Notes under the pieces: model-generated | What the model saw: only the letters and a program-made list of their open reading frames with translations | What the model was told of the DNA's origin: nothing | The model's database searches: none | Translations under genes and position numbers: made by a program | NCBI GenBank assembly: GCA_049282455.1 | Contig: JBAPUB010000029.1 | Span: forward strand, 5,176 to 69,175 | Direction: 5' to 3' | DNA length: 64,000 nucleotides | Source: Actinomycetes bacterium | Lineage (GTDB): Bacteria; Actinomycetota; Actinomycetes; JAHEKZ01 | Shown: positions 4,510 through 62,835 of the stretch, one piece after another | How positions within the stretch are numbered: the stretch's first letter is position 1 | Layout of the letters: every line of letters starts with the position of its first letter

Positions 4510-4584
4510 TGGGCCTAGGTGGACTTGAACCACCGACCTCTTCCTTATCAGGGAAGCGCTCTAACCGAGCTGAGCTATAGGCCC
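4510..4584 (-). tRNA. tRNA-Ile (anticodon GAT)
   Basis: Reverse complement is GGGCCTATAGCTCAGCTCGGTTAGAGCGCTTCCCTGATAAGGAAGAGGTCGGTGGTTCAAGTCCACCTAGGCCCA. Standard cloverleaf with anticodon loop CTGATAA. Confidence 0.9.
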
Positions 4585-4663
4585 GTGCGAAACCAAGCCT
4601 CGGAAGGCTACCCCACGTCCAAAACCGTGCCCAAACTCGCGGCATGCGTCGGACCTGGTCACC

Positions 4664-8007: not shown

Positions 8008-8060
8008 GGGCTAGGCGTTCCTTCCGGGGTGGGCCGGCGGCGACGGTTGGGTCGGTCGCG

Positions 8061-10124
<2,064 letters not shown>

Positions 10125-10268
10125 TCATCCTACTGGTCGGAGGCGTCAGAACTGGCCTTCGGGGGCCCCTGGGGACGACGTGGTCGTTCGAACCCGTGTG
10201 CGCATGACTCCCCCTACGCGGGCTGGGGGTCTGGTGGGCTCTGAGCGCCGCAATCCGACTGGGACCAC

Positions 10269-11982: not shown

Positions 11983-11993
11983 GGTGTCGCGAC

Positions 11994-13130: not shown

Positions 13131-13579
13131 GCCACTCTCCTCCCAATCGGGGTGGTCACTCTACGTGGTGGGGCGCTGGGCCGGGACGTCGCGGGGGCGG
13201 GTCTCATGGGTGGGTCCAGTCGTCGGGCGAACCTGGGGCGCAGGACCGATCATGACGGGGTTGGAGGAAGACCATTACTTGTTCCGTCATCGTCGTCGGT
13301 CCGGTGGACAGTGGGGACGAGCAGCATTGGGCCAGGTCAGCGCGGCGTGTCCGGTCCCCAACGCAGGGTGAGTAAACGGGGGCGGAGCTGGGGGCGACTG
13401 TGGACTGCGGACACGGAGAGTGAAGTTGTGCACCGCTGCGTGGCCTTTCGTCCCCAGGTCGTCCCCGGATGTCCGGGTTTCGTCCACAACGTTGTCCCCA
13501 GGGTGTGCACCCACGGTGACGAGCCGGCGAACTGGTCTTGGCGGTGGGGGAATCGGTCGATCCGACATGGCGAGGTGGC
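13131..13579. other. Candidate chromosomal replication origin (oriC) in the dnaA-dnaN intergenic spacer
   Basis: 449-bp non-coding spacer between dnaA and dnaN, the canonical actinobacterial oriC location. It contains several 7-8/9 matches to the actinobacterial DnaA box TTGTCCACA in both orientations: TCGTCCACA at about 13480, TTGTCCCCA at about 13492, TTGTGCACC at about 13425, CTGTGGACT at about 13397 and GGTGGACAG at about 13303. Confidence 0.6.
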
Positions 13580-35958: not shown

Positions 35959-38003
35959 GCCTGGGAGTCACCACCGGCGCGGGAGGCCATGATGCGGCGC
36001 GTGACCCGGACCCCGGCGGCGAGCACCAGCAGGGCCGCCACGCCACCGAAGATGATGATGGCGACCTCTCCGTAGGCGCGGACCCGTACGTCGAGCGTCA
36101 CCGGCGCCGAGTAGGGCCGCCCGCGTGGGGTAGTCAGCTGTGCGGTCACCGACAGGTTGCCGCTGGTCGTGGCCTTGACTTGCGCGTTGACACTGACCCG
36201 GCCACCGGCGGGCACCCGCACCTGGTCCGGCGCCGTCACCTGGAGGCGCAGCTCGTCGGTCGACCGCACGTCCAGGCCCACCACCACCGGCTGGTCGAGA
36301 TCGTTGGCCACGGTGATCGGGATGGGGCCGGAGTTGCTCGTCACCGTTCCGCCGCGTGACAGGATCCGAACCTTCGCGCGGTCGGCCTGGAGCCGGTCGG
36401 TGGCCTGCTGCAGCAGCACCTGACCGCTGTCGATGTTGCCACGCCACACGGTCGAGACTGCCGAGTAGAACGCGGCTCCGTAGGCCGGTACGAGGGGGGC
36501 AGGGTCGGTGAGGATGCCGCCGAAGGTGATGGTGTCGGCGCGCCCCTGATCGGCCTGGCCCACGTATGACGCGGGAAGCTGGTTCGGCGGGGCTTGGTCG
36601 GGGACGGGTTGCCGCTCCAGGCTCGGGACCGGCCAGCGGAGCGCGCGACTCAGCGGAACCGGCTGGATCCAGCCGGCGCGGGCCGTCGCCCCGAGCAGCG
36701 ACTCGGCGTAGGCAAGGCTGGGGGACCACCGACGCGGCGGTGCGATGGCGACCAGCCGCGGCTGCGTCGGCAGCTCAACCGTGATGAGCAGGGTCTGGGC
36801 CAAGAACCTCTGCCGGACCAGGATCGCCGGGTCACCCACCGAGTCGGCCACCAGGGAGTCCAGGGCGGGGTCGGTGACGACGGCGGGCAGCGCGCCGGGG
36901 CCGACATTCGCCCGGCCGCTCGGGGTGTAAGCGGGGGTGGTCACGGGCGGCACCGTGTCACCGGACAAGACGGTGGCACGAAGTCCCGCCTGCGGCATCC
37001 GTTCGATGGCCGTGGCATCGGCCTGGCCGTCGACCGGCCAGGCGAAGTCCTTGCGCACCGGGCGACCGAGCATCGAGCGGGCGAGTGCAGCGCCGGAACG
37101 GGCACCCCCTCGGATGAGGCCGGGACGGTCGGCGTCGAGCACGCTCGTGACGTCCATGTCGCCGTACGGCACGACCGCGACCTCTCGGCGTGCTGAGGCT
37201 GCCTCCAGCTCCTGCAGCCAGCGGCGGGCGTCGTCGCCGCGGGCCCCGCGGCGGGCGTCGGGACCGGCACCGATCTCGTACCCGCCACTCATCGCTGAGG
37301 CGTCGGCCAGCAGGGCCGGGTCGACCATCCAGGTCACCGGCCGGCCCGCGCCCGCCTCGACCAACGTCGCGAGGCGTCCAGACGGTGCCATCGACTCGGC
37401 GAGTCCGTCGGAGGTGAATGCCCCGGTGGCGTCACGTCGGGGAGCGTCGATGACCGGCCACAGCCACAGCAGCCTGGTTCTGGCCACCTGGTCGCCGGCC
37501 GGGTACCACGGCAGCAGCGTCGTGAGATTGGCGACCTCGGTCCGGACCCCGCCCACCAGTCCGGTGACGACCAGGCGCATGGGGTAGACGCCGGTGATGC
37601 CCAGCGGCAGCGTGTCGGCGGGCACCCGGATCCGGTAGCTGGTCGGGCGACCGCCGCTGAGTCGTCCGAGGGAGTCGTCGGCGCCGGAGACCGCAGCCAT
37701 GTACGGCGGGTTCGCGAGCGCGTCGTCGATGGCGCTGCGGGCCGTGATCGGGGCGGTCGCCAGCTGCAGCTGCACCGAGGCATCCTGGACGTCGGCTCCG
37801 GCAAGCAGTCGGACGTCGCCTCCGACGCGCAGGGTGCGCTGCAGGGTCAAGGTGACCGGTTCGAGCTCGGTCAGGGTGAGGGCGACGTCGGGTGCCCGAC
37901 CGCGCTCGGCTCCGGCGGCGCCGGGGAGGGCCAAGGTCGACAGCACCAGGGCGAGCAGGACGAGTGCAGGCGAGCGTCGCAGCAGACGCCGCCTGGAGGT
38001 CAC
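35955..38003 (-). CDS. Large secreted conserved hypothetical protein (Rv3909-like)
   Basis: GTG 38003 gives 682 aa with a signal peptide ([26 protein letters not shown]). It is translationally coupled with NUDIX upstream and murJ downstream (4-nt overlaps) and sits in the Rv3909 position. Confidence 0.6.
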
Positions 38004-38503
38004 GCGGTGTCCAGGAGGTCGGCGGCCCCTGCGACCAGTCGTCGCTCGTCGGCGTAGGCCAGCCTCGTCTGCAGCTCGTCCAGCGGGACCCAGGCGACTT
38101 CCACGACCTCGACGTCGGCATCGCTCAGCGTTCCGTCCTGCGCCTCGAACAGGAAGTGGTGCACGGTCTTGTGCACCCTGCGGTCCTCGGCGACGAACCA
38201 GAAGTCGATGGTGCCCAGAGGGGCGACGAGCCGCCCACGGATCCCCGTCTCCTCCTCGACCTCGCGTGCGGCCGCCTGTTCGGCGGTCTCGCCTTGCTCC
38301 AGGTGGCCCTTGGGCAGCGACCAGACCAATCGCCCTCGTCGGTCGTGCCGGGCGATGAGGGCGGCGCTCCACGGGCCGACGGACCGGTCGACGACGAGCC
38401 CACCGGCAGAGGTCTCCTCCACCGTGCGCAGCCGGCGCCTGGCGTCGGCGGCGCGGGAGGCAGGCATACGGCGATCGTAGTCAGCGATCTGCCGTCCCCT
38501 CAC
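38000..38503 (-). CDS. NUDIX hydrolase (MutT4-like)
   Basis: Nudix box [22 protein letters not shown]. The start may be the internal Met at 38467. Confidence 0.75.
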
Positions 38504-40068
38504 CGTGTCCCGAACACCGCCGCGGTCCGGGTGAGGGACGCAGCCAGGTCGTCCAGCCCGGCCAGGGTCTGTGCCCGTTCTCGCTGTCCCGCAGCCTGTT
38601 GCTCGCTGGCTGAGGCGACCTCGGTCATCGCTGCCACGACCTGGTCGGACGCAGAAGTCTGCTGTCGCGTCGCCAGCTGGATCTGCCCGGCCGCACCCGT
38701 GGCCTGGCTCGCCACATCGCCGATCCGGTCGAGCATCACCTGGACCTGCGCGGCGAGGGTTGCCCCGAGCTCAGCTGCGGACTGCCCGTCCTCGGTGGCG
38801 GCCACGGTGGCTTGGGTACCGGTGCGGATCCGGGCCACGATCTGCTGGATCTGTCCGGTGGAGTCGGAGGCTCGCTGCGCGAGGGCGCGGACCTCGGCCG
38901 CGACCACGGCGAACCCGCGCCCGTGCTCGCCGGCACGAGCCGCTTCGATCGCTGCGTTGAGCGCGAGCAGGTTGGTCTGGTCGGCCAGCTCGTCGATCAC
39001 GGACAGGATCCGGCCGATCTCGGCCCCTGCCGCATCGAGGTCGGCCGCCTGCGCGGCGATCCCGCCCACCTGCTCAGCCATGGCCTGGATCTGGCTGGCT
39101 GCGTCGTCGACCGCCCGCTGAGCCGCCTGGGCCGCCGTGGTCACCTCGAGGGCTGCCCCGTTGACGAGGTCGGCCGTGTCGGCGATCTGGGCCGCGCTCG
39201 CCGCGAGCTGTTGCATGCTCGCGCTGGTCTGGTTGATCGCGGCAACCTGCTGGGTGTGCCCGGCAGCGGCGTCGGATGCTGCTTCGTGCAAGGCGCTGAC
39301 GCTGCCGGCGAGCTGGTCTGCACCGGACTGCACGCTCTCGACGACGCCGCGGATGCTGCGCAGGGTGGTGTCGAGAGAGGACCACAGCGCCGCCACCGGT
39401 CCGTCACCAGCATGGGATTGGTCGGATGTGGCCTCCAGGGCGGCCGGACGAAGGTTGCCTCCGGCCACCTCGGTGAGCACATCCGTGAGCGTGTCGACCT
39501 GGAGGCGCAGCGCCTGCTCAGACGTCGACGCCAGGGCCTCCTGCTTGCGCAGGGCTCCCGCCAGTGCCGCGGCGAAGACTCCGAGCAGAAGAAGCCCGAC
39601 GGAGGCTGACAGCACCTGTCCTGCGTGTGCGACGTCGAGGTCGCCGGTCACTGCCACCGAGGTGATGAAGCCGCCGGCGCTGAGCAGGCCCATGGCCAGC
39701 GCCCACGACGTGGGCATCGTCATCGCCGAGAAGATGACCACGAAGATCAGGTAGAACCACTGCAGCCCCTCCAGGCCCCCGCCGTTGACCGTCAGGACAA
39801 CGATGACCGCGACGAAGAAAGTCATCTGCGCGACGTCGACGACGAGCGGGTACGCGTCGAGGACAGGGATCCGTCGGGCCAGCTCAGGGCGCAGGAGGAA
39901 CCACACGGCACCCAGAAGGACGAGCATCGAGGCAGCGGCCAGCACGACGACCTGGCCCCCGATCTGCGGGTCCTGCGACGCCAGGAGCCACAGCGACACC
40001 GGGTTCAGCAGGGCGTAGACGAGCGCGCACACGCCGGACACCCGCGTCACTACGCGCGCGAAGTCCAT
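38500..40068 (-). CDS. Methyl-accepting chemotaxis protein-type signalling protein with 6-TM N-terminal sensor
   Basis: ATG 40068 (GGAAGAGGA SD) gives 522 aa. Six N-terminal TM helices, then a canonical MCP signalling domain ([44 protein letters not shown]). Confidence 0.8.
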
Positions 40069-40207
40069 CGTGTGTCCTCTTCCGGCTAGCGGGTCCAGCT
40101 GGGCCCGGTCGAGTCCTCTCGGGTCTGGTCGAGCATCGGCACGGCCATGGACCCCCTTGACCGGCCCTCGCGCACCGCGGGTCGAGGACTGCCTAGGGTG
40201 GTCTGTT

Positions 40208-41641
40208 GTGTCCACGCCTGAGAACGCCGCCGCGCTGCAACGGCGTGCGGTGACCGAGCTGGTCCGGGTCTCGCCCGTCGCCGACGATCTCGGACGACGG
40301 TTCGCTGCGGCGGGGCACGAGCTCGCCCTGGTGGGCGGCTCTGTGCGCGACGCCCTGCTCGGACGTCTGGGCGAGGACCTGGACTTCGCGACGTCCGCCC
40401 TGCCCGACGAGGTCGAGGCGCTCGTGGCCGGACCGGCGACGGCCGTGTGGGACATCGGCAAGGCGTTCGGGACGATCGGCTGCCTCATCGACGGGTACAC
40501 GTGCGAGATCACGACCTACCGGGCCGAGCGCTACGACCCGTCCTCGCGCAAGCCCCAGGTGACCTACGGGGACTCCCTGGCCGTCGACCTGTCCCGGCGC
40601 GACTTCACGGTCAACGCGATGGCCGTCGCCCTTCCCGGCGTCTCGTTCGTCGACCCCCACAACGGTCTGGCCGACCTCGCCGCGCGGGTGCTGCGCACAC
40701 CGGGGCGACCCGAGGAGTCCTTCGACGACGATCCCCTCCGGATGATGCGGGCTGCCCGGTTCGCTGCGCAGCTGGGGTTCGGCGTCGACCCCGACGTGGT
40801 CACCGCAATGACCGAGATGGCAGAGCGGATCTCGATCGTCTCCGCCGAGCGGGTTCGTGACGAGCTGGTCAAGCTGATCACGACCCCCCGGCCGAGGGTC
40901 GGGCTGGAGCTGCTGGTGACCACGGGGCTCGCCGCACAGGTGGTCCCCGAGCTCGCAGCACTGCAGCTCGAGGTCGACGAGCACCACCGGCACAAGGATG
41001 TGTATGAGCACACTCTGACCGTTCTCGAGCAGGCGATCGACCTTGAGGATGGCGACCCGGACCTGGTGCTTCGACTCGCGTCGCTGCTGCACGACATCGG
41101 CAAGCCCCGCACCCGGCGGTTCGAGGCCGACGGCGGAGTTTCGTTCCACCACCACGAGGTCGTCGGTGCGCGCATGACGGCCAAGCGGTTGAAGGCGCTG
41201 CGTTTCGACAAGGTGACTGTGGAGGCCACGTCGCAGCTGGTCGAGCTGCACCTTCGCTTCCACGGGTACGCCGACGGTGAGTGGAGCGACTCCGCCGTCC
41301 GCCGGTACGTGCGAGACGCTGGGCCGCTGCTCCAGCGGCTGCACCGGCTGACTCGAGCCGACTGCACGACGCGCAACAAGCGCAAGGCCGCGGCGTTGGC
41401 CAGCGCGTACGACCACCTCGAGGAGCGGATCGAGGAGCTGCAGGAGGCCGAGGAGCTCGCGGCCATGCGCCCCGACCTCGACGGCAACCAGATCATGGCG
41501 GTCCTGGGCATCCCGGCAGGGCGAGACGTCGGGGACGCCTATCGCTACCTGCTCGAGCTGCGGCTGGACCGCGGTCCGATCGGTGTCGAGGCGGCGACCG
41601 AGGCACTCAAGCAGTGGTGGGCGCAGCGCGAACCTGTCTAG
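40208..41641 (+). CDS. cca: CCA tRNA nucleotidyltransferase (PcnA-like)
   Basis: GTG 40208 gives 477 aa. PolyA-pol head domain ([27 protein letters not shown]) plus HD domain ([12 protein letters not shown]). Confidence 0.85.
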
Positions 41642-47534: not shown

Positions 47535-49007
47535 GTGAGCGCCGACCCCCTGCAGAGTCAGCAGTGGGTGCTCCCCAGCCGTGACGACCCGGTGGTCGCT
47601 GGGGCCAGCGAGCTCATCGGCGGCCCGGTCGGGCGCCGGGCGGTCGTCGGCGGCTCGTGGTGGACGCCGATGCGGGTTGTCCTGGTCCTGGTCGTCCTGG
47701 CGAGCCTGCTCGGCGTCCTCGCCGACGAGCCCTGCCGCAAGTCGGCCTGGTCGGACTCGACCAAGCAGTACACCCACGCGTGCTACAGCGACGTCGTGCC
47801 GCTGTTCTGGGGACGCGGCCTGGCCGACCACCTGGTCCCCTACTTCAGCGACACGACTGGGACGACGGCCGAGCCCGTCGAGTACCCGGTGCTCACCGGA
47901 CTGGCGATGTGGTTCACCTCGCTCGCCGTTCCCTCGACCGGGTCGCCCACGTACCGGGGTCGGCTCTACTACGACATCAACGCCGGGGTGGCACTCGTCC
48001 TTGCGATGCTCACGGTGTGGGCCACCGCCTTGCTGGCACGCCGGCGGGTGTGGGACGCCGCGATGGTGGCGGTGGCGCCGGGGTTGATCCTCACGGCGAC
48101 GATCAACTGGGACCTCTGGGCGGTGGCGCTCACAGCGGTGGCGATGCTGGCCTGGTCCCGGCGCTACGAGTTCAGCGCTGGACTGCTGCTCGGTCTCGCA
48201 GTGTCCGCGAAGTTCTACCCGCTGTTCCTGCTGGGTCCTCTGCTCGTCCTGTGCGTGCGCGCGGCACGTCCGCGGGCCTTCACGCTGGCGCTGCTCGGGA
48301 CGGTCCTGAGCTGGGTGGCGCTGAACGTTCCGATCATGGTCACCCACTGGGACAACTGGCTGCGGTTCTACCAGCTGTCCAGGGACAGAGGCGCCGACTA
48401 CGGGTCGATCTGGCTCGTGATCACCGGCACCGGCCACTCGATGACGCTCGACGCGATCAACAAGTGGGGCATGGCGAGCTTCGCGGCGCTGTGTCTCGCG
48501 ATCGCCGTCCTGGCTCTGCTGGCTCCACGGCGTCCGAGGTTCGCCCAGCTCGCATTCCTCGTCGTTGCCAGCTTCGTTCTCACGAACAAGGTCTACTCAC
48601 CGCAGTACGTGCTGTGGCTGATCCCCCTGGCCGTGCTGGCACGGCCCCGCTGGCGCGACTTCATCTGGTGGCAGGGAGTCGAAGTCGTCTACTTCTTGGC
48701 CGTGTGGTGGTACATCCACGGCTTCACCAACCCCGACCGTGCGTTACCGGCCACGAGCTACTACCTGGTGGTCGGCCTCCACCTGCTGGCCACTGCGGTC
48801 CTGTGCGGCTTCGTGGTCCGAGACGTCTGGCTTCCCAGGTACGACGTGGTGCGGCGCGACGACGTCGACGACCCCAGCGGCGGCGTTCTCGACGGTGCGT
48901 CCGACCGCATCACGCTTGGGCCGTGGGCGAGGCGTCAGCGCACTGCCGCGAGTGGCAGTGACCAGCACTCGTCGACGGTCCCTGACGACATCCCGACACG
49001 GCGGTAG
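47535..49007 (+). CDS. GT87/DUF2029-family polyprenol-dependent glycosyltransferase-like membrane protein (Rv0051 position)
   Basis: 490 aa with multiple TM helices and conserved acidic/aromatic loops typical of the PimE/GT87 family. The start is uncertain. Confidence 0.65.
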   Translation: MSADPLQSQQWVLPSRDDPVVAGASELIGGPVGRRAVVGGSWWTPMRVVLVLVVLASLLGVLADEPCRKSAWSDSTKQYTHACYSDVVPLFWGRGLADHLVPYFSDTTGTTAEPVEYPVLTGLAMWFTSLAVPSTGSPTYRGRLYYDINAGVALVLAMLTVWATALLARRRVWDAAMVAVAPGLILTATINWDLWAVALTAVAMLAWSRRYEFSAGLLLGLAVSAKFYPLFLLGPLLVLCVRAARPRAFTLALLGTVLSWVALNVPIMVTHWDNWLRFYQLSRDRGADYGSIWLVITGTGHSMTLDAINKWGMASFAALCLAIAVLALLAPRRPRFAQLAFLVVASFVLTNKVYSPQYVLWLIPLAVLARPRWRDFIWWQGVEVVYFLAVWWYIHGFTNPDRALPATSYYLVVGLHLLATAVLCGFVVRDVWLPRYDVVRRDDVDDPSGGVLDGASDRITLGPWARRQRTAASGSDQHSSTVPDDIPTRR

Positions 49008-52831: not shown

Positions 52832-53122
52832 ATGCGTCAATACGAGCTCATGGTGATCCTCGACCCCGATCTCGAGGAGCGCACCGTAGCCCCCAGCCTC
52901 GACCAGTTCCTCAACGTGATCCGGCAGTCCGGCGGGACCGTGGACAAGGTCGACCTGTGGGGACGCCGTCGTCTCGCCTACGAGATCGACAAGAAGTCCG
53001 ACGGGATCTACGCACTGGTCGACATGACCGCCGAGCCCGACGCGGTCAAGGAGCTCGACCGACAGCTCAACCTCAACGAGGCTGTGCTGCGTACCAAGGT
53101 CATGCGCCCGGACATGCGATAA
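52832..53122 (+). CDS. rpsF: 30S ribosomal protein S6
   Basis: 96 aa, [16 protein letters not shown]... The upstream GAAGGAGG SD is perfect. Confidence 0.95.
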
Positions 53123-53132
53123 GGAGGCTGAC

Positions 53133-53636
53133 ATGGCAGCCGGTGACACCGTCATCACCCTGGTCGGCAACCTCGTCGACGATCCCGAGCTTCGGTTCAC
53201 GCCCTCGGGTGCGGCCGTCGCGAAGTTCCGGATGGCCTCGACTCCCCGCTACCTGGACAAGCAGACCAACGAGTGGAAGGACGGCGAGAGCCTGTTCCTC
53301 TCGTGCAACGTGTGGCGCCAGGCGGCCGAGAACGTGGCCGAGTCGCTGCAGCGAGGCATGCGCGTCATCGTCCAGGGCCGCCTCAAGCAGCGCAGCTACG
53401 AGACCCGTGAGGGCGAGAAGCGCACGGTCTACGAGGTCGAGGTCGACGAGGTCGGTCCGTCCCTGAAGAGCGCCACCGCCAAGGTCACGAAGGCGTCGCG
53501 AAGTGGCGCAGGTGGCAGCTTCGGTGGGGGTGGCGGCCAGGCCGCCGACGACCCCTGGGCCTCTGCCGCACCCGCTGGCGACTCGTGGGGCGGCGGCTCC
53601 AACGCCAAGGCTGGCTCCGACGAACCACCGTTCTGA
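53133..53636 (+). CDS. ssb: Single-stranded DNA-binding protein
   Basis: 167 aa with an OB-fold N-terminus, a Gly-rich linker and a C-terminal DEPPF tip. Confidence 0.95.
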
Positions 53637-53691
53637 TCCCTTCCATCCGCCCATCCCCGCATGATGCGGGGCTTCGAACTGGAGCACCACG

Positions 53692-53928
53692 ATGGCGAAA
53701 CCGCCGCTGCGCAAGCCCAAGAAGAAGGTTTGCGCCTTCTGCAAGGACAAGGCGACCTCGGTCGACTACAAGGACACGAACTTGCTGCGCAAGTACATCT
53801 CCGACCGAGGCAAGATCCGGGCCCGTCGGGTGACCGGCAACTGCACCCAGCACCAGCGCGACGTCGCCATGGCCGTGAAGAACGCCCGTGAGATGGCGCT
53901 GCTGCCCTACACGTCGACGGCGCGCTGA
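53692..53928 (+). CDS. rpsR: 30S ribosomal protein S18
   Basis: 78 aa, ..[11 protein letters not shown]...[11 protein letters not shown].. Confidence 0.95.
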
Positions 53929-53943
53929 GGGGGCTGACGAATC

Positions 53944-54393
53944 ATGAAGCTCATCCTCACCCAAGAGGTCAGTGGCCTGGGCAGTCCCGGAGACGTCGTC
54001 GAGGTCAAGGACGGCTACGGCCGTAACTTCCTGGTCCCTCGCGGCCTGGCGACCGGCTGGACCCGCGGTGGCGAGAAGCAGGTGGCCCAGATCAAGCGTG
54101 CGAGGGACACCCGCGAGGTGCGCGACCTCGGTCACGCCCAGGAGATCAGGGGCCAGCTCGCCGGACTCACCGTCACCCTGCCGGCCCGCGCCGGTGACAC
54201 CGGTCGGCTGTTCGGCTCGGTCACCGTCGGCGACATCGCCGACGCCGTGGTCGCGGCCGGCGGCCCTGCGCTCGACAAGCGTCGGATCGAGATCGGCCAG
54301 CCGATCAAGACCGTTGGCACGCACCGGGTCAGTGTTCGGCTGCACCCCGAGGTGGCCGTCGCGATCGACGTCGACGTCGTCCAGGGTTCCTGA
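53944..54393 (+). CDS. rplI: 50S ribosomal protein L9
   Basis: 149 aa, [30 protein letters not shown]... Confidence 0.95.
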
Positions 54394-54424
54394 GGGAAAC
54401 GGCCCCACAGCGGCTGTTTCCCTC
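54391..54424. terminator. Bidirectional hairpin between convergent rplI and the MATE transporter gene
   Basis: TGAGGGAAAC-(14 nt)-GTTTCCCTCA, a perfect 10-bp stem starting at the rplI stop codon. Confidence 0.5.
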
Positions 54425-54439
54425 AGGAAGTCCTGGCGG

Positions 54440-55897
54440 TCAGGACGTGAGCGAGGCTCCGGTACGCAGCCAGGTGTCACCTCGGGCCCGGTAGGCCAGC
54501 AGAGCCAGCCGCACGACCATGAACCACAGCAGGGCCCACCACAGGGCCACGACCCCGTCGTCGTTGGCACGCACGAGCGCGGCCGCCGGTACGAAGGCGA
54601 CCAGCGTCACCGCACCGGCTCCGGCCAGCCAGGTGGCGTCGCCGGCCCCGATGAGAACGCCGTCCAGCACGAACACGGGACCGGCCACCGGTTGGTGGAC
54701 GGCCACCACCAGCAACGACGCCGTCAGCAGTGAGCGCACGGCAGGGTCTGCGCTGAACATCGCCGGAAGTAGCGGGGCCAGCAGCACCACGAGGCCCGCG
54801 AGCGCGAAACCGGCACCGATCCCCCACTGCAGCAGACGCCGGAGGTCCTGGCGGGCGGCATCGACGTCGGAGGCGCCGAGGTCACGGCCGACCAGGGCCT
54901 GGCCGGCGATGGCCAGGGCGTCCAGGGCGAGGGAAAGCAGCAACCACACCTGGAGGGACACGTGGTAGGCCGCGAGGTCGGCGTCGCCGGCATGCGCAGC
55001 CACCGACACCGACACGATGAAGACGGCTCGCAGGGCGAGCGTCCTCAGGAGCAACGGTCCGCTCAGCCGCGCCGTCTCACGGACCCCCGCAAGGTCGGGC
55101 CACCACGAGACCGCGTACGGACGCGACCGCCGGACGACGACGGCGACGTACGCCGCGGCACCGATGGCCTGGGCGAGCACCGTCGCCCAGGCCGAGCCGG
55201 CCACACCGTGGTGGAGGCCGAGGACGAACCACAGGTCCAGGACCAGGTTCAAGCTGGCGGTCACGACGGTGATCACCAACGGCGTCCGGGTGTCCTGCAA
55301 GCCCCGCAGCAGGCCGATGGCAGCGAACGACACGAGCACCGCCGGAAGCCCGAGGAGGCTGACCCGCAGGTAGTCACCGGCAAAGGGCGCAGCGGTCGCG
55401 GACGCCCCCAGTCCGGCGACCAGAGCCGTCGCCAGCAGCTCTCCGACCACGACCAGGGCCAGGCCCAGCACCAGTCCGAGCCACAGCGCGTCGGCCCCCA
55501 GCCGCAGGGCGTCGTCGGCGCGGCCAGCGCCGAGGCGACGCGCGACGACCGCGGTGGTGCCGTACGCCAGGAAGACACACAGCCCCACCGTGGTGGCCAG
55601 CACGGTGCCGGCCGCACCGAGGCCGGCCAGCTGTGCGGTGCCCAGCGTTCCCACGACCGCGGCGTCGGCCAGCAGGAACAACGGCTCGGCGACCAGCGCC
55701 CCGAGCGCGGGAACGGCCAGGGCCAGGATCGCTCGGTCACGGGGGTCCAGGCGCACGAGCCGCGACGCTACCCGGACCCGGCCGAACACCAGGGCCGGGA
55801 GGGACGGCGCCCGATAGTTGTCCACAGGTTGCCCACAGGCAGGTCCCGCAGGATCCACCGATGCCGGGCGCGTCGTCCACAGTCGGCCTGGGGACAA
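54440..55897 (-). CDS. MATE-family efflux transporter
   Basis: 485 aa with 12 TM helices and the DinF/NorM-like pattern. The start is possibly downstream of the annotated one. Confidence 0.8.
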   Translation of the reverse strand: MSPGRLWTTRPASVDPAGPACGQPVDNYRAPSLPALVFGRVRVASRLVRLDPRDRAILALAVPALGALVAEPLFLLADAAVVGTLGTAQLAGLGAAGTVLATTVGLCVFLAYGTTAVVARRLGAGRADDALRLGADALWLGLVLGLALVVVGELLATALVAGLGASATAAPFAGDYLRVSLLGLPAVLVSFAAIGLLRGLQDTRTPLVITVVTASLNLVLDLWFVLGLHHGVAGSAWATVLAQAIGAAAYVAVVVRRSRPYAVSWWPDLAGVRETARLSGPLLLRTLALRAVFIVSVSVAAHAGDADLAAYHVSLQVWLLLSLALDALAIAGQALVGRDLGASDVDAARQDLRRLLQWGIGAGFALAGLVVLLAPLLPAMFSADPAVRSLLTASLLVVAVHQPVAGPVFVLDGVLIGAGDATWLAGAGAVTLVAFVPAAALVRANDDGVVALWWALLWFMVVRLALLAYRARGDTWLRTGASLTS

Positions 55898-55930
55898 CCC
55901 AGGACGGCCGGCTTCCTACACTGACCTGCG

Positions 55931-57235
55931 ATGCCCGACACCCCGGCGACGCCTGGCCGACTCCCGGTCGCGAGCCACGCTGCGCTCACCCTGGGACGTG
56001 CGGCAGCCCGCCTGAGCCAGTGGGGTGGTCACGGCCGTGGGTCCCAGGTCGGGGGCAAGGTCGCCTACCGGCTGCGGCCGCAGACCCTGGCCGACCTTGC
56101 CGCCCACCGGTCCGTCGCGCTGGTGTCGGGGACCAACGGCAAGAGCACGACGGCGACGCTGCTCGCCGCCGCAGCATCGATGCTGGGACCTGTGGCCTTC
56201 AACCGCACGGGCGCCAACATGGAGGAAGGACTCGTCACCGCGCTCGACGCCGACCGGCGTGCCGCGGTGGCCGTGCTCGAGACCGACGAGGCCTACCTGA
56301 GCTCGGTGGTCGAGGCGACGCGACCGCGGCTGATCGTGCTGATGAACCTCAGCCGCGACTTCCTGGAACGCGGGGTCAGGGCCAAGCGCCTGGCCGGTCA
56401 CTGGCACGACACCGTGACCCGGATCGACTGGCCGTGCACGGTCGTGGCCAACGTCGACGACCCGCTGGTCGCCTGGGCGGTGGCGAAGGCACCACGTGTG
56501 ATCTGGGTCGCCGGCGAGGACACGTACCTCGACGATGCGGTGCTGTGCCGTGACTGCCTCGTCCGGCTGGACCGAGACGGGTGGAAGTGGGCGTGCCCGC
56601 GCTGCCGGTTCTCACGCCACGAGCCCCACTGGATGCTGCACCGCGAAGGCGGAGAGGTGTCGGCACAGGCACCAAACGGGGCAGTCGTCGGTGTACCACG
56701 CGCTCTTCCCGGCCATGCCGCAGAGGTGAACGTGCTGTTCGCCCTCGCTGCAGCCGTCGAGCTCGGCGTTCCCGTGGAGTCCGCGGCAGCACGGATCGCC
56801 GAGGTCGAGGGCGTCGACGGCCGCTACGCGCCCCGGCCCTTCGGCGCGCATCGGGTGCGCGTCCTCCTGGCGAAGAACCCGGCCAGCTGGACCGAGTCGC
56901 TGGCGACGGTCAGCGAGGGGCCGGCGGGCAGCGCCTCCCGTTCGCTTGTCCTGGCGATGCACGGCCGGGGTGGAGGCGGTGGTCAGGACACGGCGATGCT
57001 GTGGGATGCGCCGTTCGAGCGCCTCGCAGGACGCCGAGTAACCGTGGCGGGGTCCCGAGGCAACGAGCTGGCGCTTCGCCTGACTGTCGCCGGCGTCCAC
57101 GTCGACGTAGGCGGAGACGACGTCCTCGGGGCAGTAGGCACGTTGCCGCCTGGGGACGTCGACCTGGTCGCCAACTGGCCGGCGTTCAACGATGTGCTCG
57201 ACGTGCTGGGTCGTGACATCCAGGTCGGCCCATGA
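55931..57235 (+). CDS. murT: Lipid II isoglutaminyl synthase, Mur-ligase-like subunit MurT
   Basis: 434 aa with the Mur ligase P-loop VSGTNGKSTT, a Cys-rich insert (CRDC...CPRC) and a C-terminal DUF1727 region, followed by gatD. Confidence 0.8.
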   Translation: MPDTPATPGRLPVASHAALTLGRAAARLSQWGGHGRGSQVGGKVAYRLRPQTLADLAAHRSVALVSGTNGKSTTATLLAAAASMLGPVAFNRTGANMEEGLVTALDADRRAAVAVLETDEAYLSSVVEATRPRLIVLMNLSRDFLERGVRAKRLAGHWHDTVTRIDWPCTVVANVDDPLVAWAVAKAPRVIWVAGEDTYLDDAVLCRDCLVRLDRDGWKWACPRCRFSRHEPHWMLHREGGEVSAQAPNGAVVGVPRALPGHAAEVNVLFALAAAVELGVPVESAAARIAEVEGVDGRYAPRPFGAHRVRVLLAKNPASWTESLATVSEGPAGSASRSLVLAMHGRGGGGGQDTAMLWDAPFERLAGRRVTVAGSRGNELALRLTVAGVHVDVGGDDVLGAVGTLPPGDVDLVANWPAFNDVLDVLGRDIQVGP

Positions 57236-57951
57236 GCCTGGACACACTGATGGTGGTCGAGGTGTTCCCCTCGTTGCTGCAGCCGGAGGGTGACCACGGC
57301 AACGTCGTGATCCTCACAGACCGGGCCCATCGACGAGGCGTCGACGTCGACGTGCTCATCGTTCATCCCGGTGACGACCTTCCGGACGACGCTCAGCTGT
57401 ACCTCATCGGCGGCTCCACGGACTCCGACTTGACGGAGTGCGCGCGTCGGCTGCGCTCGGGTGGAGAGCTCACACGCGCCGTTGCCGCAGGTGCGGCCGT
57501 GCTCGGCGTCGGCGCGGGGTACCAGGTCTTGTCACAGCGCTTTGACGACCCCGACGGCTTGCCGCACGACGGCGTCGGCCTGCTCGATGTCGAGATGTCA
57601 CATGCCCCGTGGGCCAAGGGTCCAGTCGTCACTGCGCCCAGCCCCGCACTCGGTCTTCCCCAGCTGTCCGGGTACGAGTACCACTGCAGCGGGGCGTCGC
57701 TCGGCCCCGACGTGCTGCCGCTCGCCGCGCTCGAGATCGGCGTGGGTAACGGAGAGCGTGCAGGGGCAAACCATGACGGAGCCGTTTCCGGGAGGGTCAT
57801 CGGCACCTGGCTGCACGGACCGCTCCTGCCCCGCAACCCCGAGGTGGCCGACCTCCTGCTGCGCTGGGTCGGCGTCGACGTGACGCCGCTCGACGACTCG
57901 GCAGCGCACGAGGCCAGGACGATCAGGATCCGTGAGGCGCGCGCGGGCTGA
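57232..57951 (+). CDS. gatD: Lipid II isoglutaminyl synthase, glutaminase subunit GatD (CobQ/CobB-type GATase)
   Basis: 239 aa with a GATase1-like domain and catalytic Cys and His regions. The ATG overlaps the murT stop. Confidence 0.8.
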   Translation: MSLDTLMVVEVFPSLLQPEGDHGNVVILTDRAHRRGVDVDVLIVHPGDDLPDDAQLYLIGGSTDSDLTECARRLRSGGELTRAVAAGAAVLGVGAGYQVLSQRFDDPDGLPHDGVGLLDVEMSHAPWAKGPVVTAPSPALGLPQLSGYEYHCSGASLGPDVLPLAALEIGVGNGERAGANHDGAVSGRVIGTWLHGPLLPRNPEVADLLLRWVGVDVTPLDDSAAHEARTIRIREARAG

Positions 57952-57995
57952 TACGTTCGCGGCTTCTCGGTCCGGGGTGACTTCTGGAGGACGCT

Positions 57996-58433
57996 GTGGC
58001 GAGGGTCAGCATCTATCTGAACTTCATGGGAAACGCAGAAGAGGCGTTCAACCACTACAGGTCGGTGTTCGGTGGCGACTTCACGTCTTTCCAACGGATG
58101 AGTGACGTGCCACCCGACTCCTCTCAGCCGCCCCTGCCGGACAACGAGAAGAACCTGGTGATGCACGTCGAGCTGCCGATTCTCGGCGGGACGGTGCTGA
58201 TGGCCACGGACATGCTGGAGTCGATGGGACATGCCCTCCGTACCGGCAACAACGTCGCGATCAACCTCGAGCCCGATGACCTCGATGAGACCAGGCGGCT
58301 GTTCGCCGCTCTGTCCGACGGTGCAACCGACATCGCGCCCCTCGAGAAGATGTTCTGGGGCGCCTACTGGGGCACGTGCTGCGACCGGTTCGGTGTCCGC
58401 TGGATGTTCAACTACGCGGACTCCCCCGCCTGA
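57996..58433 (+). CDS. VOC-family (glyoxalase/PhnB-like) protein
   Basis: 145 aa with PhnB/3-demethylubiquinone-9 methyltransferase-domain-like sequence (..LVMHVELPILGGTVLMATD..). Confidence 0.7.
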   Translation: MARVSIYLNFMGNAEEAFNHYRSVFGGDFTSFQRMSDVPPDSSQPPLPDNEKNLVMHVELPILGGTVLMATDMLESMGHALRTGNNVAINLEPDDLDETRRLFAALSDGATDIAPLEKMFWGAYWGTCCDRFGVRWMFNYADSPA

Positions 58434-58553
58434 CGGCGCGTCGGCCATCTCCGCTCGGTGCGGGGCTGTTCGCGTGGCGGGGCTAGGGTCGCAGACGTAG
58501 GGAGCCCAGCCGGGTCCACCGAGCTGCTGGCGAAGCGTCGTGGAGGCTGCCGC

Positions 58554-60044
58554 GTGAAGACTGCCGCGACGCAAACAGCGGCACTCCCGGCCCAGGTCGA
58601 CGTCCTGGTCGTCGGCGGGGGAGTGAGCGGTCTGGCGACGGCGTACTTCCTGCGCAAGCGGCTGGGGTCGAATGCCTCGGTCCTGGTGCTGGAGGCCGAC
58701 CCCCGACCAGGCGGCAAGGTCTGGACCCGCACGGTCGCCGGTCTACCCGTCGACGTGGGGCCGGATGCGTTCTTGGCCAGGGCTCCGCAGCTGCGGTCCC
58801 TGGTGGCCGACCTGGGCCTGGCGGAGCAGGTGACCGGACCCGCCGCCTCTGGCGCCTACGTGTGGTCTCGTGGACGGCTGCGCAGGCTCCCACCCGGTGC
58901 GCTGTTCGGGATCCCGGACCGGATCGTGCCGATGCTCGCCTCGGGCCTGCTCTCCCCTCGCGGTGCGGCCCGGGCAGCGGTCGACCTGGTCCGTCCGACG
59001 ACGACCCCGCGCTGTGCCGACCCGTCCGTCGGTGACCTCCTGCGGCCCCGGTTCGGTCGTGAGGTGTTCGACCGGCTCGTGCAGCCGCTGGTCGGAGGAG
59101 TTCACGCCGGGGATGCCGACCTGCTCAGCGCGAGCGCCACGGTCCCGGAGATCGCTGCCCTGGCGCGGTCGGGGCGCAGTCTGTTCCTGACGTTGCGGGC
59201 TCGCCGCCGTGCAGCCAGCGCCGCGGCCCGTGCCGAGCCGGGGCGTCCATCGCCAGCACTGGTGTCGCTGCTGGGCGGGATGGGCGGCCTGGTGGAGGCG
59301 TTGGTCGCCGCCGTCGATGCAGACCTGCGGTCGGGTGTGCGCGTCGAGGACGTCGCCGCTTCGCCCGAAGGTCTGCTCGTCAGCACCTCGGCGGGCCACG
59401 TGTCGGCTCACCAGGTGGTCCTGGCCGCGCCGGCTCCCGCGGCGGCAGACCTGCTCGCCCGCCACAACGTGACAGCGTCTGCGACTCTGCGTGAGATCCC
59501 GTACGTCGATGTCGCCAACGTGACGCTGGCGTTCCGGGCCGCCGACCTGTCGGGTGTGCCGATGGACGGTACTGGCTTCATGGTTCCTCCGGTCGAGGGC
59601 GAGCTGCTGGTCGGCTGCAGCTGGCTGTCCAGGAAGTGGCCGCACCTCGTCGGCAAGGACGTGCTGCTCATCCGTTCCATGGTGGGACGCGCGGGTGACC
59701 AGCGCTGGACCGCGTTCGACGACGACGAGCTGGTCCTGCAGGTGCGTGAGTCTCTGTCCCGACTGATGGGGGTGTCCGCTGCGCCGGTCGACGTGCTGGT
59801 GCAGCGGTGGCCGTCGGCGATGCCCCAGTACACCGTCGGACACGCCGAGCGCCTCGCGCGGCTCGATGCAGCGTTGGTGTCGTCGCCGTCGCTGCATGTG
59901 ACAGGAGCTGCGTACCGCGGTGCGGGCCTGGCCGGTTGCGTGGCCCAGGCAAGCATCGTCGCGTCGCAGGTCTGCGAACGTCTCGCCGTCCCCGGGTTGG
60001 GTGCCGGCGACCTGGTTGGTCCTCCTGAAGGGGCACTTCGATGA
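58554..60044 (+). CDS. hemY: Protoporphyrinogen / coproporphyrinogen III oxidase (HemY/CgoX family, FAD-dependent)
   Basis: GTG 58554 with a GGAGG SD 7 nt upstream gives 496 aa. N-terminal FAD dinucleotide-binding motif VLVVGGGVSGLATAY. Overall HemY-family length and C-terminal region. Confidence 0.8.
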   Translation: MKTAATQTAALPAQVDVLVVGGGVSGLATAYFLRKRLGSNASVLVLEADPRPGGKVWTRTVAGLPVDVGPDAFLARAPQLRSLVADLGLAEQVTGPAASGAYVWSRGRLRRLPPGALFGIPDRIVPMLASGLLSPRGAARAAVDLVRPTTTPRCADPSVGDLLRPRFGREVFDRLVQPLVGGVHAGDADLLSASATVPEIAALARSGRSLFLTLRARRRAASAAARAEPGRPSPALVSLLGGMGGLVEALVAAVDADLRSGVRVEDVAASPEGLLVSTSAGHVSAHQVVLAAPAPAAADLLARHNVTASATLREIPYVDVANVTLAFRAADLSGVPMDGTGFMVPPVEGELLVGCSWLSRKWPHLVGKDVLLIRSMVGRAGDQRWTAFDDDELVLQVRESLSRLMGVSAAPVDVLVQRWPSAMPQYTVGHAERLARLDAALVSSPSLHVTGAAYRGAGLAGCVAQASIVASQVCERLAVPGLGAGDLVGPPEGALR

Positions 60045-61198
60045 CTCACGGCGTGCCATCGCGACCGGTCAACTTCGACCAGCGACCGATGCTGGTGTTC
60101 TGGGAGGTCACTCGCTCGTGCCTGTTGGCATGCGAGCACTGTCGCGCGTCAGCGACAGCCGGACCGTTGCCCGGCGAGCTCGACCACGCCGAGGGGTTCG
60201 ACCTGATCGACCAGGTGGCGGGTTTCGGGCGCCCCTACCCGATCCTGGTGCTCACCGGTGGCGACTGCCTGCTGCGCGAGGACATTTTCAGCCTGGTCGA
60301 CCACGCCGCGTCGAAGGGCATCCCCGTGGCGCTGTCACCGTCGGTCACGCCGATGCTCACGCCCGACGCCGTCGCCTCCATGGTGAGCTCGGGGGTTAAG
60401 GCAGTGTCGATCAGCCTGGACGGAGCGTGTGCTGCGACGCACGACGGCGTGCGGGGCATCCCGGGTCACTTCGAGCAGACGATCCCGGCGATCAAGCAGC
60501 TGGTCTCCGCCGGGCTGACCGTGCAGATCAACACGACGGTCATGGCCTCGAACGTCCGCGAGCTGCCCGACGTCGCTGCGCTCGTCACCGACACAGGGGC
60601 GCACATGTGGGAGGTGTTCTTCCTGGTCCACGTCGGCCGCGGGGAGGCGACCGGAGCGATCAGCCCGGTCGAGCACGAGGACGTGTGCCACTTCTTGTTC
60701 GACGCATCGCAGTACGGGTTCATCGTTCGTACGGTCGAGGCCCCGTTCTTTCGGCGCGTTGTGGCGCAGCGACGCGCAGACGACTCTGCCCGCCCCGACA
60801 CCGAGCTCTACTCCCACCTGTCGGCACGGCTCGTCCAGCGCCTGGGGACCTCGCAGGCCCGCCCGTCGGCGCACACGGCGGCCACCCGCGACGGCAAGGG
60901 GATCTTGTTCGTCGCGCACGACGGTGAGGTGTACCCGGCCGGCTTCTTGCCACTGGGTCTGGGATCGGTGCGGGACCGTCCGCTGGCCGACATCTACCGT
61001 GAGCACCCCACGTTGCGGGCGATCCGTGCAGCACAGTTCTCCGGCAAGTGCGGGGTGTGCGAGTTCTCCGACCTGTGCGGCGGGTCGAGGGCCCGGGCCT
61101 ACGCTGCGTCCGGTGACCCCCTAGGGTCCGACCCGGCGTGCCCGTACGAGCCCGGGCCGATGCTCGCGGCCGGGCCGGTGAAACGTCTCAGTGGGTGA
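60041..61198 (+). CDS. Radical SAM / SPASM-domain protein (AhbD/NirJ-like), translationally coupled to hemY
   Basis: 385 aa. CxxxCxxC motif in the WE-x-T-R-x-C-x-L-x-C-x-H-C context (VFWEVTRSCLLACEHC), a GGD..LLRED SAM-binding region and a C-terminal Cys cluster (CGVCEFSDLCGG...CPY) typical of SPASM/twitch domains. The ATG overlaps the hemY stop (ATGA). Confidence 0.8.
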   Translation: MTHGVPSRPVNFDQRPMLVFWEVTRSCLLACEHCRASATAGPLPGELDHAEGFDLIDQVAGFGRPYPILVLTGGDCLLREDIFSLVDHAASKGIPVALSPSVTPMLTPDAVASMVSSGVKAVSISLDGACAATHDGVRGIPGHFEQTIPAIKQLVSAGLTVQINTTVMASNVRELPDVAALVTDTGAHMWEVFFLVHVGRGEATGAISPVEHEDVCHFLFDASQYGFIVRTVEAPFFRRVVAQRRADDSARPDTELYSHLSARLVQRLGTSQARPSAHTAATRDGKGILFVAHDGEVYPAGFLPLGLGSVRDRPLADIYREHPTLRAIRAAQFSGKCGVCEFSDLCGGSRARAYAASGDPLGSDPACPYEPGPMLAAGPVKRLSG

Positions 61199-61274
61199 GA
61201 CGCCGGCAGACGGTGTGTTCTCCACAGTTCGTGGCAGACGAACGCGCAGGTCAGAGACGGTGCGGAGCGCTGGG

Positions 61275-61292
61275 CCTGTGGATATCCACAGG
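61275..61292. promoter_or_regulatory. Perfect 18-bp palindrome CCTGTGGATATCCACAGG (head-to-head DnaA-box-like pair) in the dnaB leader
   Basis: Contains TGTGGATAT / ATATCCACA, each an 8/9 match to TTATCCACA. It lies 77 nt after the radical SAM stop and about 160 nt before the dnaB start. It could alternatively act as a 7-bp-stem hairpin terminator. Confidence 0.45.
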
Positions 61293-61452
61293 TCCGTCCC
61301 GAAGGTTACGCACGGGTGAACCGGCGTGTTCCCCACGATGTCCCCAGGGGCATCCCCAGGCTCACTTGGTCTTGTCGGACCTGCCGGGTAGAGATGGTCT
61401 CGATCGTTGCTCTCGCCTGCTGACAGCCTGCCCACCCCTGAACAGGAGCCCG

Positions 61453-62835
61453 GTGACCGTCGCGCAGTTCCAGACCCCCGCCGACGAGTCCGGCTTCGCC
61501 GGTGGGTTCGGGCCGGCCTTCGACCGGACCCCGCCGCAGGATCTCGAGGCCGAGCAGGGCGTGCTCGGCGGGATGCTGCTGAGCAAGGACGCCATCGCCG
61601 ACGTCGTCGAGCAGCTCCGCGCCGGCGACTTCTACAAGCCTGCGCACCAGACGGTGTACGAGGCGATCCTCGACCTCTACGGCCGCGGCGAGCCCGCCGA
61701 CCCGGTCACCGTCGCCGACGAGCTCACCAAGCGTGGCGAGATCTCCCGGATCGGCGGTGCGCCGTACCTGCACACGTTGATCGCGTCGGTTCCGACCGCG
61801 GCGAACGCTGGGTACTACGCGCGCATCGTCGGCGAGCGAGCCATCCTGCGACGACTGGTCGAGGCGGGGACCCGGATCGTGCAGCTGGGATACGCCGACA
61901 CCGGTGAGGTCGACGACGCCGTCGACCGCGCACAGGCGGAGATCTACCACGTCACCGAACGACGCACGAGCGAGGACTACCTGCCGCTGTCGCAGATCAT
62001 GGAGGGCACCCTCGACGAGCTGGAGGCCATCGGGTCGCGCGGTGGAACCCTGGCGGGCGTTCCGACCGGCTTCACCGACCTGGACAACCTCACCAATGGC
62101 CTGCATCCCGGCCAGCTCGTGGTCGTCGCCGCTCGGCCCGGCCTCGGCAAGTCGACGGTCGCGCTGGACTTCGCGCGAGCGGCCTCCATCAAGCACGGCC
62201 TGACCAGTGTCATCTTCAGCCTCGAGATGACCCGCAACGAGATCACCATGCGTCTTCTCTCCGCCGAGGCGCGAGTGGCACTGCACCACATGCGCACGGG
62301 GTCGATGAGCGACGACGACTGGACCAGGCTCGCGCGCAAGATGAGCGAGGTCGCGAGCGCGCCACTGTTCATCGACGACTCTCCCAACATGAACATGATG
62401 GAGATCCGCGCCAAGTGCCGCCGACTCAAGCAGCGTCACGACCTCAAGCTCATCGTCGTCGACTACCTGCAGCTCATGAGCAGCGGCAAGCGCGTCGAGA
62501 GCCGCCAGCAGGAGGTCGCCGAGTTCTCGCGCTCGCTGAAGCTGCTGGCCAAAGAGCTGGGTGTTCCGGTCGTCGCGCTCAGCCAGCTGAACCGCGGTCC
62601 CGAGCAGCGCACCGACAAGCGCCCGATGTTGTCCGACCTGCGTGAGTCCGGCTCGATCGAGCAGGACTCCGACGTCGTCATGCTGCTGCACCGCGAGGAC
62701 GCCTACGAGCGCGAGTCGCCGCGGGCAGGTGAAGCCGACTTCATCATCGCCAAGCACCGCAACGGACCGACGGCAACGGTCACGGTGGCCTTCCAGGGCC
62801 ACTACTCGCGCTTCGTCGACATGGCCAACAGCTGA
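61453..62835 (+). CDS. dnaB: Replicative DNA helicase DnaB
   Basis: GTG 61453 with AGGAG 4 nt upstream gives 460 aa, with Walker A GLGKST, Walker B and an arginine finger. No intein is present. The 565-aa track ORF is a 5' extension through the leader. Confidence 0.95.
   Translation: MTVAQFQTPADESGFAGGFGPAFDRTPPQDLEAEQGVLGGMLLSKDAIADVVEQLRAGDFYKPAHQTVYEAILDLYGRGEPADPVTVADELTKRGEISRIGGAPYLHTLIASVPTAANAGYYARIVGERAILRRLVEAGTRIVQLGYADTGEVDDAVDRAQAEIYHVTERRTSEDYLPLSQIMEGTLDELEAIGSRGGTLAGVPTGFTDLDNLTNGLHPGQLVVVAARPGLGKSTVALDFARAASIKHGLTSVIFSLEMTRNEITMRLLSAEARVALHHMRTGSMSDDDWTRLARKMSEVASAPLFIDDSPNMNMMEIRAKCRRLKQRHDLKLIVVDYLQLMSSGKRVESRQQEVAEFSRSLKLLAKELGVPVVALSQLNRGPEQRTDKRPMLSDLRESGSIEQDSDVVMLLHREDAYERESPRAGEADFIIAKHRNGPTATVTVAFQGHYSRFVDMANS

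Follow-up and report, generated by a model that had tools for sequence, protein, structure and literature searches.

The window analysed here, a 64,000-nucleotide (64-kb) stretch of DNA from an Actinomycetes bacterium, carries at 58554–61198 a gene of the HemY family (hemY/cgoX) that overlaps the gene of a 385-aa radical S-adenosylmethionine (SAM) protein. From its sequence relationships, we consider it likely that the radical SAM protein is an O2- and H2O2-independent coproheme decarboxylase, acting in the coproporphyrin-dependent haem pathway alongside the decarboxylase ChdC. The original prediction for this locus, a candidate O2-independent terminal step of haem synthesis, is the best-supported reading, from the nearness of the protein to AhbD and from its conserved pairing with hemY. 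The 58554–60044 gene most likely encodes a coproporphyrinogen oxidase (CgoX), and the two genes most likely form a two-gene haem operon.

Structure of the gene pair

The features of the pair are listed below, all on the plus strand. The two short purine-type motifs and the overlap were read directly from the sequence.

58542–58546, plus strand: Shine–Dalgarno-like GGAGG, with a 7-nt spacer to the hemY GTG
58554–60044, plus strand: hemY/cgoX, flavin adenine dinucleotide (FAD)-dependent HemY family (TIGR00562, PF01593), putative coproporphyrinogen III oxidase, 496 aa
60027–60033, plus strand: purine-rich GAAGGGG within the 3' end of hemY, 7 nt before the radical SAM ATG
60041–60044, plus strand: ATGA overlap of the radical SAM start (ATG) and the hemY stop (TGA)
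60041–61198, plus strand: AhbD-like TIGR04053 radical SAM gene for a candidate haem b synthase (O2-independent coproheme decarboxylase) of 385 aa
60119–60142, plus strand: cysteine motif of the radical SAM cluster, C27-x3-C31-x2-C34, shared by each of the 86 relatives inspected
61049–61141, plus strand: C-terminal AuxII-type [4Fe-4S] motif C337-x2-C340-x5-C346-x20-C367, with Ser349 at the AuxI-ligand position

The HemY reading frame is open from 58458 to 60044 on the plus strand with its GTG start at 58554, and its TGA stop (60042–60044) is overlapped by the ATG of the radical SAM gene (60041–60043). GenBank records the same two products on one 69,407-bp contig of a metagenome-assembled genome labelled Actinomycetes bacterium, namely MFZ0322776.1 (496 aa, 'protoporphyrinogen oxidase', with the same start at 58554) and MFZ0322777.1 (385 aa, 'TIGR04053 family radical SAM/SPASM domain-containing protein'). 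The ATGA overlap between hemY/cgoX and the 385-aa gene, as first described, therefore agrees with both the coordinates and the annotated products. The GAAGGGG motif might be a ribosome-binding site through which translation of the radical SAM gene is coupled to that of hemY. A promoter and terminator scan of 57900–61600 gave no signal beyond shuffled expectation, and no radical SAM paralogue was found within the window.

The HemY protein scores 262.2 bits against TIGR00562 (cut-off 97.85) and belongs to the HemY family, with the amine-oxidase FAD fold recognised by PF01593 (Amino_oxidase, 165 bits) and PF13450 (55 bits). Among solved structures, the best match is Bacillus subtilis HemY (3I6D, 262 bits), a coproporphyrin-pathway enzyme, followed by the Myxococcus xanthus protoporphyrinogen oxidase (2IVD, 213 bits). 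CgoX and PgoX are not separable by NCBIfam names, all of which read 'protoporphyrinogen oxidase'. In four relatives (loci L014, L033, L050 and L077), the coupled hemY is the sole hemY of a full hem cluster and is therefore the putative housekeeping CgoX there. The CgoX of Streptomyces coelicolor gave no anaerobic complementation (PMC6620371).

The radical SAM protein is AhbD-like with a single auxiliary-cluster motif

Scored against hidden Markov models (HMMs), the 385-aa protein is a member of TIGR04053, at 510.3 bits (cut-off 395) with residues 11–371 aligned to profile positions 2–366 of 366. The runner-up is the AhbD model TIGR04545, matched over its full length (positions 1–339 of 339) at 288.6 bits. 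Lower scores were obtained with NirJ2 (189.9 bits, cut-off 500), NirJ (155.7, cut-off 515), AhbC (NirJ1; 144, cut-off 650), the sactipeptide maturase StsB (129.5, cut-off 625), MftC (106.6, cut-off 265) and PqqE (81.3, cut-off 381), all below threshold. An assignment to the AhbD/NirJ/AhbC family had been made earlier; AhbD is indeed the nearest characterised model, but the cut-offs of AhbD, NirJ and AhbC are all missed and the family is TIGR04053. The best match is thus not an unrelated SPASM subfamily such as a peptide maturase. NirJ, NirJ1/AhbC and NirJ2 share with the protein a clade of radical SAM/SPASM enzymes that modify tetrapyrroles, yet their models score far lower (144–190 bits against cut-offs of 500–650). 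Many TIGR04053 members are annotated by the Joint Genome Institute as 'AdoMet-dependent heme synthase'.

Membership of the radical SAM superfamily follows from PF04055 (54.2 bits, cut-off 29.5) together with C27, C31 and C34, which lie in the N-terminal sequence VFWEVTRSCLLACEHC (residues 19–34). A SPASM protein with two auxiliary clusters, AuxI and AuxII, has 7–8 conserved C-terminal cysteines; here there are only C337, C340, C346 and C367, and the SPASM profile PF13186 reaches 19.8 bits against a gathering threshold of 21.5. Both the N-terminal CX3CX2C and the C-terminal cysteine cluster noticed at first inspection are hence present at these residues. According to Fix et al. (2023), all AhbDs carry CX3CX2C and CX2CX5CX20–38C, the four extra AuxI cysteines occur only in the AhbDs of methanogens and sulfate reducers, and non-methanogenic archaeal AhbDs have Glu or Ser at the AuxI cysteine positions (PMC10452713). 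The window protein contains both AhbD-common motifs, the second as CX2CX5CX20C within the published spacing, and Ser349 occupies the place of the AuxI ligand C324 of Methanosarcina barkeri AhbD. The x20 spacing and the Ser at the C324 position were found in 86/86 relatives, and the complete pattern of CX3CX2C and CX2CX5CX20C with Ser in 70 of the 78 motif-bearing cluster representatives. Because the protein falls below the AhbD equivalog cut-off and is without the AuxI cysteines, the accurate label on motif grounds is 'AhbD-like, AuxII-only type', with one predicted auxiliary cluster.

Compared with AhbD (EC 1.3.98.6) of M. barkeri and Desulfovibrio vulgaris, the window protein shows full-length homology, the same CX3CX2C and AuxII motifs and the same predicted coproheme reaction; it differs in the missing AuxI cysteines and in scoring below 500 bits. 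Its gene also sits with hemY (in relatives with hemE, hemH and chdC) rather than with ahbA/B/C, and no nir or ahb gene was found near it in the window. The AuxII-only archaeal AhbDs of Aeropyrum, Sulfolobus, Pyrobaculum and Halorubrum (Fix et al. 2023), compared by their published motifs, have the same cysteine content and the Ser at the AuxI position, whereas the window gene resides in a bacterial host with the coproporphyrin-dependent pathway.

An AlphaFold2 model of the radical SAM protein was of moderate confidence (mean predicted local distance difference test score, pLDDT, 72.8, with low values near the cluster loops). A fold search of the PDB retrieved only generic SPASM/Twitch enzymes at template-modelling (TM) scores of 0.55–0.59 (SkfB, PqqE, anSME and SuiB), and sequence and fold searches of solved structures together likewise gave generic SPASM/Twitch enzymes only, BlsE among them. 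No AhbD or NirJ structure for comparison was present among the solved structures.

TIGR04053 and AhbD adjoin in one clade

An exhaustive search with HMMER through 1.84 billion cluster representatives yielded 821 clusters at E ≤ 1e-30, ten of which were sampled down the identity gradient. The TIGR04053 cut-off is still exceeded at 41% (P0186, 396.9 bits) and 37% identity (P0209, 407.2 bits), and P0199, at 39%, lies under it with 350.6 bits. At 36% identity P0230 is a near-tie (TIGR04053 380, AhbD 374.5), and AhbD leads for P0190 (426 against 417) and P0192 (497 against 392), which also fall within 36–41% identity. No relative above 41% identity bears the additional AuxI cysteines; those that do bear them have AhbD scores of 426–497 and TIGR04053 scores of 363–417. 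These near-equal scores of distant relatives indicate that the two models cover adjoining parts of one continuous clade. Named TIGR04053 members come from Nitrososphaerota (48% identity), Thermoplasmataceae (46%), Thermoanaerobaculia (41%) and Thermoplasmata (37%).

The TIGR04053 gene of a Nitrososphaerota metagenome-assembled genome (locus L086, 5869–9167) encodes a protein with 48% identity to that of the window and overlaps another radical SAM gene, of NirJ/AhbC/AhbD-like type. About 1.7 kb upstream of the TIGR04053 gene is a gene of Lrp/AsnC type, sub-threshold on AhbA/AhbB. This layout resembles an ahb operon and is suggestive of a link between TIGR04053 and the siroheme route in archaea. 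Among the loci, it was seen only in this archaeal one; no ahb gene occurs among the conserved neighbours in Actinomycetota, so the siroheme-route association typical of AhbD was not found there.

The pairing with hemY is conserved

When GTDB was scanned with each species represented by a single genome, 455 relatives were confirmed, and the best 80 were taken together with 10 kb on either side. These 80 all come from Actinomycetota and have 67–78% identity, so the statistics describe close relatives only; the neighbouring genes were called by a crude method. As 2 of the 80 loci end upstream of the radical SAM gene, 78 are informative, and hemY is adjacent in 59 of these. The neighbourhood survey thus bears out the pairing that the original prediction would expect in relatives. 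In 50 loci hemY is directly upstream on the same strand, with a 4-bp ATGA/GTGA overlap in 43 of them; the other co-directional pairs have a 1-bp overlap (n = 1), a 22-nt gap (n = 4) or stop-codon-extension artefacts (n = 2; L001 and L069). In nine loci a convergent hemY of 31–37% identity is found, directly downstream in eight and with one gene between in L058. These convergent genes belong to low-GC Nanopelagicaceae and to Acidimicrobiia, and their products still pass TIGR00562. When the neighbouring open reading frames (ORFs) were clustered, hemY alone was widely shared and the remainder was lineage-specific. Since the surroundings vary while hemY stays, the pair can be described as a cassette of two genes.

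Two lineages have settings of their own. In Dermatophilaceae-type loci (L028, L035, L038, L043, L044, L051, L056 and L060), feoB (TIGR00437) precedes the pair, as does a conserved 172-aa membrane protein without a family match; L056, for example, reads feoB (4–1848), a small ORF (2113–2628), hemY (2695–4176) and the radical SAM gene (4173–5336). The position of feoB hints at an iron-linked operon. In low-GC Nanopelagicaceae (L037, L067, L063, L064, L078 and L079), an intact radical SAM gene is convergent with a divergent hemY amid unrelated surroundings. Two of these loci are from genomes labelled Ca. Planktophila, L037 (radical SAM gene 185–1270, hemY 1309–2811 on the minus strand) and L067 (4651–5814 and 5822–7297 on the minus strand).

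Haem genes recur near the pair, chdC among them

Other haem genes lie within 10 kb of the pair. They are hemA (15 loci), hemL (8 loci) and hemE (5 loci), for each of which NCBIfam confirmed a single representative, as well as hemC in L058 and the ferrochelatase gene hemH in 5–6 loci. We searched for chdC and hemH with the exact Listeria ChdC sequence (checked against PDB 6FXJ), B. subtilis HemH and locus-derived sequences. Six loci have chdC within 10 kb (L014, L033, L050, L058, L075 and L077). In L014, hemY and the radical SAM gene occupy one strand, hemH, chdC and hemE the other, and hemA and hemL lie beyond. As the hem clusters of six relatives include chdC, the radical SAM enzyme there supplements ChdC and is not its replacement; the latter idea was rejected on this count.

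ChdC/HemQ has the same predicted substrate and product as the radical SAM enzyme. It differs in having an unrelated fold and chemistry, in depending on H2O2 and in using coproheme as its own cofactor. The same logic governs the HemF/HemN (CgdC/CgdH) pair, an O2-dependent and a radical SAM, O2-independent isozyme of one decarboxylation, although HemN is of another radical SAM family and acts on coproporphyrinogen. For ChdC and AhbD, this isozyme logic has been shown genetically in Haloferax volcanii, where deletion of the ChdC-domain protein impairs aerobic growth and deletion of ahbD impairs anaerobic growth only, both rescued by haem (PMC5746218, PMC8305020); the archaeal pair is, however, fed by the siroheme route.

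Proposed function

We infer the substrate, chemistry and physiological role of the radical SAM enzyme by homology to AhbD. In the proposed pathway, HemY/CgoX would turn coproporphyrinogen III into coproporphyrin III, from which CpfC, a ferrochelatase whose gene lies beyond the window, would form Fe-coproporphyrin III (coproheme), and the AhbD-type enzyme would convert coproheme to haem b using neither O2 nor H2O2. By analogy with characterised AhbD, the [4Fe-4S] cluster bound by CX3CX2C would cleave SAM reductively, and the resulting 5'-deoxyadenosyl radical would abstract hydrogen from a propionate side chain at its beta-carbon. Loss of CO2, with one electron leaving via the single C-terminal auxiliary [4Fe-4S] cluster, would then give a vinyl group, and two such rounds would proceed through a monovinyl intermediate at the cost of two SAM. 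For AhbD itself, SAM cleavage, beta-carbon hydrogen abstraction and the two rounds with a monovinyl intermediate have been described (PMC10452713). The enzyme would thereby be an oxygen-independent isozyme of ChdC/HemQ, as HemN is to HemF, and the ATGA overlap would serve its co-expression with CgoX.

Several observations weigh against this proposal. The protein misses the curated AhbD cut-off (288.6 of 500 bits for TIGR04545), and NCBI gives TIGR04053 no functional name. The radical SAM gene is coupled to that of CgoX, a non-adjacent step, as the ferrochelatase acts between the two. The window holds no further haem gene, chdC, cpfC and uroD included. No hemY lies within 10 kb in 19 informative loci, in 6 of which an NMO-like gene takes its place after the radical SAM gene. 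Many TIGR04053 carriers are aerobes, ammonia-oxidising archaea among them, and 'anaerobic' may therefore be too narrow a description. Our literature search found no published assay of any TIGR04053 member, Gram-positive ones included, a search on the name TIGR04053 gave no match, and Mingers et al. (2024) still describe the oxygen-independent enzyme as 'yet unknown' (PMC10965808).

Alternative readings

The radical SAM enzyme might instead depend on a flavoprotein partner in some other role, tetrapyrrole-related or redox, be it a NirJ-like side-chain change, the processing of salvaged porphyrin or haem, or an electron-exchange complex, which we regard as unlikely. Such a role would fit a flavoprotein gene (HemY or NMO-like) directly beside the radical SAM gene in 65 of the 78 informative loci, a pair that travels as a two-gene cassette through unrelated contexts, and models of NirJ2 and NirJ that match as well (190 and 156 bits). 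It would also fit the pair in the two Ca. Planktophila loci (L037 and L067), though cultured Planktophila score without haem modules. On the other side, AhbD is clearly the closest characterised model, and haem biosynthesis genes recur nearby, with no haem-uptake or haem-degradation gene recurrent among the neighbours. That haem-auxotrophic acI bacteria keep the pair was also considered as a sign of a non-biosynthetic role. Published tables give the cultured acI Planktophila strains as haem auxotrophs with zero for the CPH (coproporphyrin) and SIRO (siroheme) modules; because the cultured strains score zero for both and only some members carry the pair, this argument is weakened.

The NMO-like protein is a second recurrent flavoprotein partner of the TIGR04053 gene. 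It is a flavin mononucleotide (FMN) protein of ~490 aa that matches PF03060 and no NCBIfam family, and its nearest solved structures are 2-nitropropane dioxygenases (E ~1e-6). Its gene directly follows the radical SAM gene in L031, L036, L052, L054, L061, L070 and L084/L085 (~11.1–12.7 kb in locus coordinates), loci without hemY. In two Acidimicrobiia loci it stands beside the convergent hemY, on the minus strand of L065 (12467–13948) and L075 (12538–13959).

It is rather improbable, in our estimate, that the substrate of the radical SAM enzyme is metal-free, the enzyme either converting coproporphyrinogen III to protoporphyrinogen IX as an analogue of HemN/CgdH or decarboxylating coproporphyrin III, with HemY as PgoX in an O2-sparing, protoporphyrin-type branch. 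Tight coupling is natural for consecutive steps, which HemY and the decarboxylase are not in the coproporphyrin route, and this scheme would make them so. Yet hemY and chdC are usually adjacent in actinobacterial operons even though their steps are non-consecutive, and this counts against the metal-free substrate. HemY sequences do not split cleanly into CgoX and PgoX, but B. subtilis CgoX, at 262 bits, is nearer to the window HemY than is M. xanthus PgoX, at 213 bits. The score below the AhbD cut-off leaves room for a different substrate; however, AhbD as the closest characterised family uses Fe-coproporphyrin, and the clusters of relatives that hold chdC and hemH with the pair amount to a complete coproporphyrin-dependent set.

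A similarly low probability attaches to a redox-coupled complex of the radical SAM enzyme with its translationally coupled flavoprotein (usually HemY, in some lineages the NMO-like FMN protein), or to the variant in which the radical SAM enzyme works on metal-free porphyrin(ogen) beside HemY. In such a complex, the flavin would pass electrons from coproporphyrinogen to the radical SAM or auxiliary clusters. If this were true, the 'aerobic' CgoX would become oxygen-independent while SAM cleavage is primed, and the pair would be a self-contained anoxic module ending the coproporphyrin pathway.

Finally, a SPASM peptide or cofactor maturase (of sactipeptide, mycofactocin or PQQ type) with no functional tie to the neighbouring hemY would share the generic radical SAM/SPASM fold (TM 0.55–0.59 to SkfB, PqqE, anSME and SuiB) but is effectively excluded by scores far under the cut-offs (StsB 130 against 625, MftC 107 against 265, PqqE 81 against 381), by only four C-terminal cysteines, by the conserved hemY linkage and by the lack of any conserved precursor-peptide, peptidase or exporter gene near the radical SAM gene in the relatives' loci.

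Genomic surroundings

The window is a chromosomal origin region, with gyrA, gyrB and dnaA at 5425–15100 (5–15 kb) and with rpsF, ssb, rplI and dnaB at 52832–62835 flanking the pair. The block between rplI and dnaB consists of a MATE transporter, murT/gatD, a VOC protein, hemY and the radical SAM gene, so that the murT/gatD homologues and the VOC-family protein lie directly upstream of the pair. Elsewhere, a 670-aa methyl-accepting chemotaxis protein homologue (38500–40512, minus strand) implies a motile or chemotactic actinomycete. Two large ORFs of coding-like GC3, one of 805 aa (35955–38372, minus strand) and one of 490 aa (47535–49007, plus strand), had no NCBIfam match at E ≤ 1e-20.

Discussion

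The original prediction described a radical SAM decarboxylase joined to CgoX as an unusual hybrid pathway. This did not hold, as the arrangement is common in Actinomycetota and has already been predicted in reviews. Between 2022 and 2026, reviews have placed an 'AhbD-like' step in the coproporphyrin-dependent pathway (PMC10114771, PMC10548856, PMC12670364, PMC13564367). A passage of the 2023 review, citing Dailey 2015, has ahbD colocalised with hemY/hemH/hemQ or with ahbA/B/C (PMC10548856), and two Chemical Reviews articles (2025 and 2026) list AhbD as an anaerobic alternative to ChdC. The pairing is therefore widespread and already predicted, and the locus is a typical example with no new concept.

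It is a recognised gap how Gram-positive bacteria finish making haem when neither O2 nor H2O2 is available; ChdC needs peroxide. The survey sharpens the case for the radical SAM enzyme as the candidate through the conserved hemY overlap, the co-occurrence with chdC, the AuxII-only architecture and the archaeal members of the family. The value of the locus is that it offers a clean, well-defined target for a biochemical test of the AhbD-like candidate.

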